From Leucoraja erinacea (taxonomy: Eukaryota): a DNA stretch of 64,000 nucleotides. Below are positions 5,385-5,554 of the stretch, one piece after another. The stretch is taken from contig NC_073378.1 of the NCBI RefSeq assembly GCF_028641065.1, positions 137,454,001 through 137,518,000 on the forward strand, read 5' to 3'. Made by a program: the position numbers and the translations under genes. The notes below the pieces were generated by a model. It made no database searches. It worked only from the letters and a program-made list of their open reading frames with translations, and was not told the DNA's origin. Position 1 is the first letter of the stretch. Each line of letters opens with the position of its first letter.

Positions 5385-5554
5385 AGCTCGGTGAGCCTCA
5401 GAGTGGAGTGCAGGGAGTACACGGGTCCAGTCATCACACAGTTGGACACGTCCTCACACATCATCACCACCCGGTCCTCAGAGTGGGACTGGGATGCGGA
5501 GGGGCTGCTGTGGCGTTGCCGCCTCTTCTTCCTCCTCTTCATGGAGTTGAGCAT
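5385..5554 (-). CDS. Candidate unannotated internal first exon of plectin in intron 6 (polybasic N-terminus)
   Basis: ggcagcATG, 56 codons (MLNSMKRRKKRRQRHSSPSASQSHSEDRVVMMCEDVSNCVMTGPVYSLHSTLRLTE) + CT|gtaagc. The phase-2 donor is in frame with exon 7; in-frame TGA 14 codons upstream. Confidence 0.5.

Follow-up and report, generated by a model that had tools for sequence, protein, structure and literature searches.

A Skate Plectin Gene with a Candidate Coding Exon in Intron 6

The stretch of DNA analyzed here (hereafter the window; 64,000 nt of Leucoraja erinacea, NC_073378.1:137,454,001-137,518,000) carries a plectin gene on its minus strand. An S10-type exon 1 lies at 58624, followed by exons 2-8 of the actin-binding domain (ABD), in order, by the exons of the plakin domain, and, downstream, by the large exons 31 and 32, the rod and the repeat domains being each encoded by a single exon. 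Over the part scored, the last-exon peptide shares 68-70% of its residues with shark plectins and 52% with chimaera plectin. Counterparts of the first exons that join exon 2 in shark and mammalian plectins are also found in the window, at 58624-58151, 44114-44031, 39472-39398, and 26122-26036, with further ones at L008:4049-4005, L009:2605-2516, L009:9011-8886, and L010:4098-3901; we take these eight counterparts to be 1, 1b, 1g, 1a, 1e, 1f, and 1c, the eighth being a long 5′ extension of 1c. The last plectin exon (L019:1-8932 and L020:4827-10000, downstream of the window) is open over 4,702 codons and contains a unit of ~984 nt in tandem, whose copies are 88-97% identical. It displays 26 marker motifs of the repeat domain; sharks have 15-16 of them, and chimaera and bony vertebrates 7-11. 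These repeats are either an epiplakin-like expansion of the plectin repeat domains or partly an artefact of the assembly.

Within intron 6, 377 nt downstream of exon 6 (5931..6097, minus strand; first part of the second calponin homology domain, CH2), a candidate exon opens with ggcagcATG (5560-5552), preceded by an in-frame TGA at 5596-5594. Its coding part (5385..5554, minus strand) stays open for 56 codons and 2 further nt (CT) down to 5385, where it meets a phase-2 splice donor, gtaagc (5379..5384, minus strand; GCT|gtaagc). Exon 6 also ends in phase 2, and the CT of the candidate followed by the first G of exon 7 (315..430, minus strand; supported as the acceptor exon by this phase fit and by the consensus of the loose ends of RNA reads) gives a Leu ahead of the exon-7 peptide. 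The stretch hence has what is expected of a first coding exon, namely a start codon of its own, an open frame, and a donor in the phase of exon 7. Start, upstream stop, frame, donor, and phase had all been pointed out in an initial annotation of this DNA and are readily found in the sequence; its description of a unique stretch some 380 nt past exon 6 is equally accurate, as the candidate DNA is single-copy in the genome and the second-best match of the peptide is no better than E 1.2.

The presumed 5′ UTR and promoter would occupy 5555..5866 (minus strand), an interval that holds the Kozak context of the ATG, an in-frame CAG (5558-5556), and four upstream ATGs. Neither a TATA box nor a CpG island was found upstream of the candidate ATG (CpG observed/expected 0.43-0.47), and the CpG-rich segment of intron 6 at 2140-2760, which has 57 matches in the genome, stems from a repeat and is not a promoter island. 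One of the upstream ATGs is in the frame of the candidate (5668-5598) and opens 24 codons that run into the TGA at 5596, itself overlapping a donor-like GTG|gtgaga in phase 2; the three others are located at 5814, 5785, and 5684. These upstream ATGs may represent uORFs or a minor variant. In a more distant part of the gene, a CpG-rich tandem repeat of 5- and 15-nt units extends over ~1.3 kb directly upstream of exon 3 (12551-13980).

Taken by itself, the anatomy of the candidate is not above chance: an RnnATG followed by at least 30 codons and a GTRAG donor occurs 22 times on the minus strand of the window, five times in phase 2. The candidate has the densest basic cluster of these 22 layouts (8 of 9 residues, with 5 in the runner-up), and it is its homology to the records of other species that lifts it above chance.

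Homologous N-Termini in Shark, Chimaera, and Hake Plectin Records

We used a piece of the last exon to gather full-length plectins (120 of its 927 matches being listed) and opened their clusters, with up to 15 members listed for each. The exon-8 motif was present in 194 of the 240 proteins compared; exon 6 was found at a constant spacing of 100 residues in 189 of these and was absent in five. One of these five records starts at a Met inside exon 7, and the four others, from three species, begin with a homologue of the candidate that leads directly into exon 7. They correspond to XP_041039509.1 of the white shark (Carcharodon carcharias; plectin-like isoform X5), to XP_042202753.1 of the elephant shark (Callorhinchus milii; plectin isoform X4), to an older chimaera record of 335 aa (UPI0004571338) whose start is identical to that of XP_042202753.1, and to KAK0134090.1 of the hake Merluccius polli ("Plectin"), the first ~45 residues of which match the candidate. 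The shark, chimaera, and hake records share the same type of start (Met, basic cluster, motif 1) and the exon-7 peptide, and hold no sequence from exons 2-6. They are automatic computational gene models from three separately annotated genomes; RefSeq isoform models are usually based on RNA-seq introns.

The candidate peptide is 45% identical to its shark and 39% identical to its chimaera homologue, with both conserved motifs kept, and the corresponding local alignments (z 22.7 and 15.7, respectively) were equaled by none of 20,000 shuffles in each case, also when the first 14 residues were left out. When the hake N-terminus was aligned with each of the three peptides, 0 of 10,000 shuffles scored as high (3, 0, and 12 of 10,000 once the basic part had been removed), and its profile match had an E-value of 3.7e-6 among 238 proteins. 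The start Met and the polybasic cluster (codons 6-14 of the candidate; 5513..5539, minus strand) are common to all four homologues (candidate, shark, chimaera, and hake), each with 7-9 K/R within the first 16 residues. Motif 1, R-V-x-M-x-C-E-D/E (codons 28-35; 5450..5473, minus strand), forms invariant alignment columns with shark and chimaera and is also found in hake. Motif 2, G-x-aliphatic-Y-S-aliphatic-H ... L-T-E (codons 43-56; 5387..5428, minus strand), ends with its L-T-E at the donor and is shared by the cartilaginous fishes; it is unclear in hake, where the match covers motif 1 only. The N-terminal parts measure 66 residues in shark, 64 in chimaera, 117 in hake, and 57 in the candidate, whose spacer is 5-7 residues shorter than those of shark and chimaera.

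Among the tetrapod records listed, at up to 15 members per plectin cluster, the candidate exon was absent, as it was from the Mustelus isoforms listed (15 of 23 cluster members). The peptide belongs to no Pfam family, its best match in the PDB had an E-value of 1.1, and, in searches of the ESM Atlas, the chimaera fragment matched nothing but CH clusters, at values below 0.9, and the hake N-terminus gave no match. A match to a repetitive 527-aa protein, found among cluster representatives, was spurious.

The shark, chimaera, and hake lineages split roughly 400-450 million years ago. Because one and the same junction is predicted in three genomes and the motifs are kept across these splits, the candidate is, in all likelihood, a genuine internal first exon as old as the jawed vertebrates.

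Predicted Consequences for the Architecture and Location of Plectin

On the basis of these comparisons, we consider it likely that the conserved coding exon of intron 6 is used as an alternative first exon and spliced to exon 7. The resulting plectin would have no working ABD and would carry a basic tail, predicted to be disordered, as an address label. Transcription would start from a promoter lying downstream of exon 6 and ahead of the ATG, probably in few tissues, and splicing of the candidate exon to exon 7 would leave out CH1 and the first 45 of the 109 CH2 positions. It had been proposed at the outset that CH1 and most of CH2 are lost: the former holds, but positions 46-106 of the 109 in the Pfam CH profile (~56% of CH2) would remain in the product, so that only ~40% of CH2 would be missing, which is enough to break the fold. 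The broader proposal, namely that an internal first exon is spliced to exon 7 with a plectin devoid of a working ABD as the outcome, is supported by the homologous N-termini of shark, chimaera, and, in part, hake. Since integrin beta-4 and nesprin-3 bind the plectin ABD and CH1 bears actin-binding sites (PMC4353693, PMC2171291; for nesprin-3, also PMC6886330), the isoform should no longer have the links to F-actin, integrin beta-4, and nesprin-3 that the ABD mediates. With the plakin domain, the rod, and the repeat domains retained, binding to intermediate filaments should remain.

The new peptide is predicted to be a flexible tail attached to a plakin domain that is itself intact, and the CH2 domain is not rebuilt in the models. 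An AlphaFold2 prediction of the 335-aa chimaera fragment, computed from 40 aligned sequences, gave pLDDT values of ~30 for residues 1-70, 41-53 for the CH2 remnant, and 82-95 for the spectrin repeats, the low values over the new peptide being possibly a reflection of a shallow alignment there; an earlier structure prediction with four sequences was uninformative (mean pLDDT 48).

The location of plectin is determined by its first-exon peptides, as a review has it (PMC3695321), and the chances seem about equal that the new peptide sets the location of its isoform in the same manner. By analogy with these peptides, the basic cluster, the conserved Cys, and the hydrophobic motifs might together form a tether, on the cytoplasmic side, to a membrane or to the nuclear surface, a reading that we hold to be evenly balanced; an isoform tethered in this way would dock filaments there independently of actin. 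That the invariant Cys is an acylation site is a speculation. The two conserved short motifs point to a binding partner or an anchor.

It is unlikely, in our view, that the basic cluster is instead a working nuclear localization signal (NLS), one of the two roles that the initial annotation had offered for it, and that the isoform or an N-terminal piece cleaved from it has a role within the nucleus. The classical monopartite NLS follows the pattern K-(K/R)-x-(K/R), which occurs in all four homologues within a region that is predicted to be disordered. In addition, the first exon of plectin 1 carries an NLS, and fragments from the N-terminus of this isoform enter the nucleus, as described in PMC8466646 and PMC3695321. 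However, the same sources report that full-length plectin 1, despite its NLS, stays on the outer nuclear/ER membrane, which is why we prefer a tether over import. Clusters that are just as basic (6-8 K/R in nine residues) are moreover found in the other plectin first exons, in six of six checked, including the hydrophobic 1b-like exon. The rod and the filament-binding repeats would presumably keep the protein cytoplasmic, and bringing a dimer of >1 MDa into the nucleus seems less likely than tethering it.

Returning to the tether, one may tentatively go further, with rather less confidence, and picture a second plectin transcription unit that started from intron 6 before sharks and bony fishes split, and in which a basic and possibly lipid-modified (through the invariant Cys) membrane anchor replaces the ABD. 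If this were true, the intron-6 unit would dock intermediate filaments on a membrane without actin, integrin beta-4, or nesprin-3. Mutations in exons 1-6 would leave it intact as well, and it may still exist, unnoticed, in zebrafish or even in tetrapods.

RNA Reads, Close Relatives, and the Fate of the Exon in Leucoraja erinacea

Four RNA runs of Leucoraja erinacea (reads at least 99% alike) were consulted, with 1-6% of each raw run read. At this depth, and with two reads touching the exon, no read joined the candidate to exon 7 in any of the four runs, and depth was 0 at 5372-5452, the donor end, in all four. The first bulk run yielded 18 reads, 13 of which join exon 6 to exon 7 and none of which falls on the candidate; the second gave one poor read; and the contig run gave none, possibly through an effect of filtering. 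Two reads on exon 6 and two on the candidate region came from the single-cell run, the latter being one sense read at ~5528-5657 and one partial read on the opposite strand. No pile-up of read starts was seen upstream of the ATG among the reads listed.

Contigs of four related organisms (D-G) span the whole exon (four differences are not displayed). In all four, the ATG, its Kozak context, the frame, and the donor are unchanged, with neither indels nor stops in the frame. Nine of the 11 changes in the frame are non-synonymous and two synonymous (ratio 1.3-1.7), against 0 non-synonymous and 6 synonymous changes in exon 6, a control limited to organisms D and E because a paralogue is the source of the 5940-5976 pieces in E, F, and G. 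A frame would stay intact after 11 random changes with a chance of 0.56. Two of the nine non-synonymous changes hit columns that are invariant in shark and chimaera, when 2.6 are expected by chance; the invariant Cys33 and Arg12 are each altered in one relative, the Cys change coming from a contig of depth 3.5 and being possibly an error. In the basic cluster, the first six residues are constant in the four relatives and the last three are changed in every one. Close relatives thus show no sign of protein-level constraint, with the low power that 11 changes afford, which counts against strong current selection. Organism E nevertheless accumulated 14 changes in the 522 nt of 5345-5866, compared with 6 over the ~39 synonymous sites in exon 6 (p 0.0014 by Fisher's test), a hint, from one species that was chosen for sharing the stretch, that the exon and its upstream region form a constrained regulatory region.

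These observations bear on the possibility that an exon which is ancestral, and real in both sharks and chimaeras, has become relaxed or is decaying and little used in the lineage of Leucoraja erinacea. The excess of non-synonymous changes, the altered Cys33 (subject to the shallow contig) and Arg12, the shortened spacer, and the lack of junction reads in the 1-6% of the four runs that were read all go in this direction. Yet the peptide still shares 45% and 39% of its residues with shark and chimaera, both motifs are kept, and the frame is free of indels and stops in the four relatives; the greater conservation of the surrounding DNA in organism E, one species that was chosen for sharing the stretch, speaks for maintenance too, and the 11 changes in the frame afford little power. 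We accordingly judge such a decay improbable.

The exon might also be thought of as a cassette of 171 nt (5555-5385), symmetric with phase 2-2, for which the CAG at 5558-5556 would act as acceptor and which would be placed between exons 6 and 7; CH1 would then stay and CH2 would be broken from within. The initial annotation had set this aside on the ground that no in-frame acceptor lies between the stop and the ATG. This ground does not hold, as the CAG is real, in frame, and in phase 2, with a branch-point-like CTGAC ~28 nt upstream, though the tract ahead of it is purine-rich. Its preference for a first exon stands for other reasons: pyrimidines make up 0.37 of the tract ahead of the AG, whereas five true acceptors have 0.47-0.74; none of the 189 records with exon 6 has an insert ahead of exon 8; the 13 junction reads listed all skip the candidate; and the four homologues all begin at a Met within the candidate exon. 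Such a cassette is consequently very improbable.

That the candidate is a mere chance open frame in an intron, as the 22 similar ATG-frame-donor layouts and three peptide-only protein searches without a relative (among proteins of 99-2000 aa, proteins of 30-98 aa, and cluster representatives) could suggest, can practically be dismissed, being refuted by the shuffle-tested alignments with homologues that three other species have at this very junction, and the blank searches, which covered 30-2000 residues or cluster representatives, are false negatives because length limits and clustering hid the full-length isoforms. We also considered and rejected an origin by duplication of exon 6, evoked by a similar C...G spacing, position, and phase: the profile-profile probability was 1.9%, 45 of 1,000 shuffles scored as high for the candidate peptide, and the shark and chimaera peptides gave no score.

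Relation to Known Plectin and Plakin Isoforms

The internal first exon that we favor departs from the plectin first exons described so far. Twelve of these are known, nine of them coding, and all are spliced into exon 2, as the initial annotation had noted for the coding ones and as reviews state (PMC3695321, PMC8466646, PMC11774597, PMC2947472, PMC5979291). Plectins 1-1g and 1k resemble the candidate isoform in that each has a short isoform-specific N-terminal peptide from a first exon of its own (PMC3695321, PMC8466646, PMC11774597, PMC2947472); however, their first exons lie upstream of exon 2, join it, and keep the whole ABD, whereas the candidate lies in intron 6 and would join exon 7. 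Mouse plectins 1h, 1i, and 1j, like the candidate isoform, are missing most of the ABD, but they do so through non-coding first exons joined to exon 2 with translation from exon 6, and add no peptide (PMC3695321). The candidate, in contrast, is a coding exon downstream of exon 6 that would add a conserved peptide and drop exon 6.

In other plakins, alternative starts that drop CH1 or both CH domains are likewise on record, for MACF1a3, MACF1-4, MACF1c, and BPAG1e/BPAG1a3. MACF1a3 retains all of CH2 and no CH1, and MACF1-4, MACF1c, and BPAG1e have no ABD, with no CH domain in MACF1c and MACF1-4 (PMC4914211, PMC3352950); the candidate isoform would differ from these by keeping a remnant of CH2. 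In the equivalent introns of two paralogues in the genome (2.0 kb on C26 and 17.8 kb on C5), no homologous exon was found, the best profile match having an E-value of 0.42. We take these paralogues to be MACF1-like and DST-like, respectively.

The belief that no such isoform had been described appears to hold for the exon itself and fails for ABD-deficient plectin as such, known from mouse 1h-1j. In the full-text literature searched, with subscription papers outside its scope, neither a first exon located in intron 6 of plectin nor shark plectin isoforms were found to be described. ABD-deficient plakins are thus already known, and the candidate is apparently undescribed in print and unremarked in the annotations of three fishes.

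A coding first exon that bypasses exons 2-6 would break the rule of the reviews that every first exon joins exon 2. As these reviews have the first-exon peptide act with the ABD to place plectin, the candidate isoform would amount to a natural test of plectin function without the ABD. Should the exon be present in zebrafish pleca or plecb, alleles affecting the early exons would fall short of nulls, and direct study of the isoform would become possible.

Finally, a different kind of N-terminus was observed in sauropsid records that cluster with plectin. Three lizard and bird records (P0157, P0165, and P0185) are proteins of the spectrin-repeat, EF-hand, and GAR type whose N-terminus has an MG start and which have no ABD, and a lizard "plectin" (P0156) reaches 7,244 aa, which suggests that, in sauropsids, a MACF1-like unit adjoins plectin or is read through from it.
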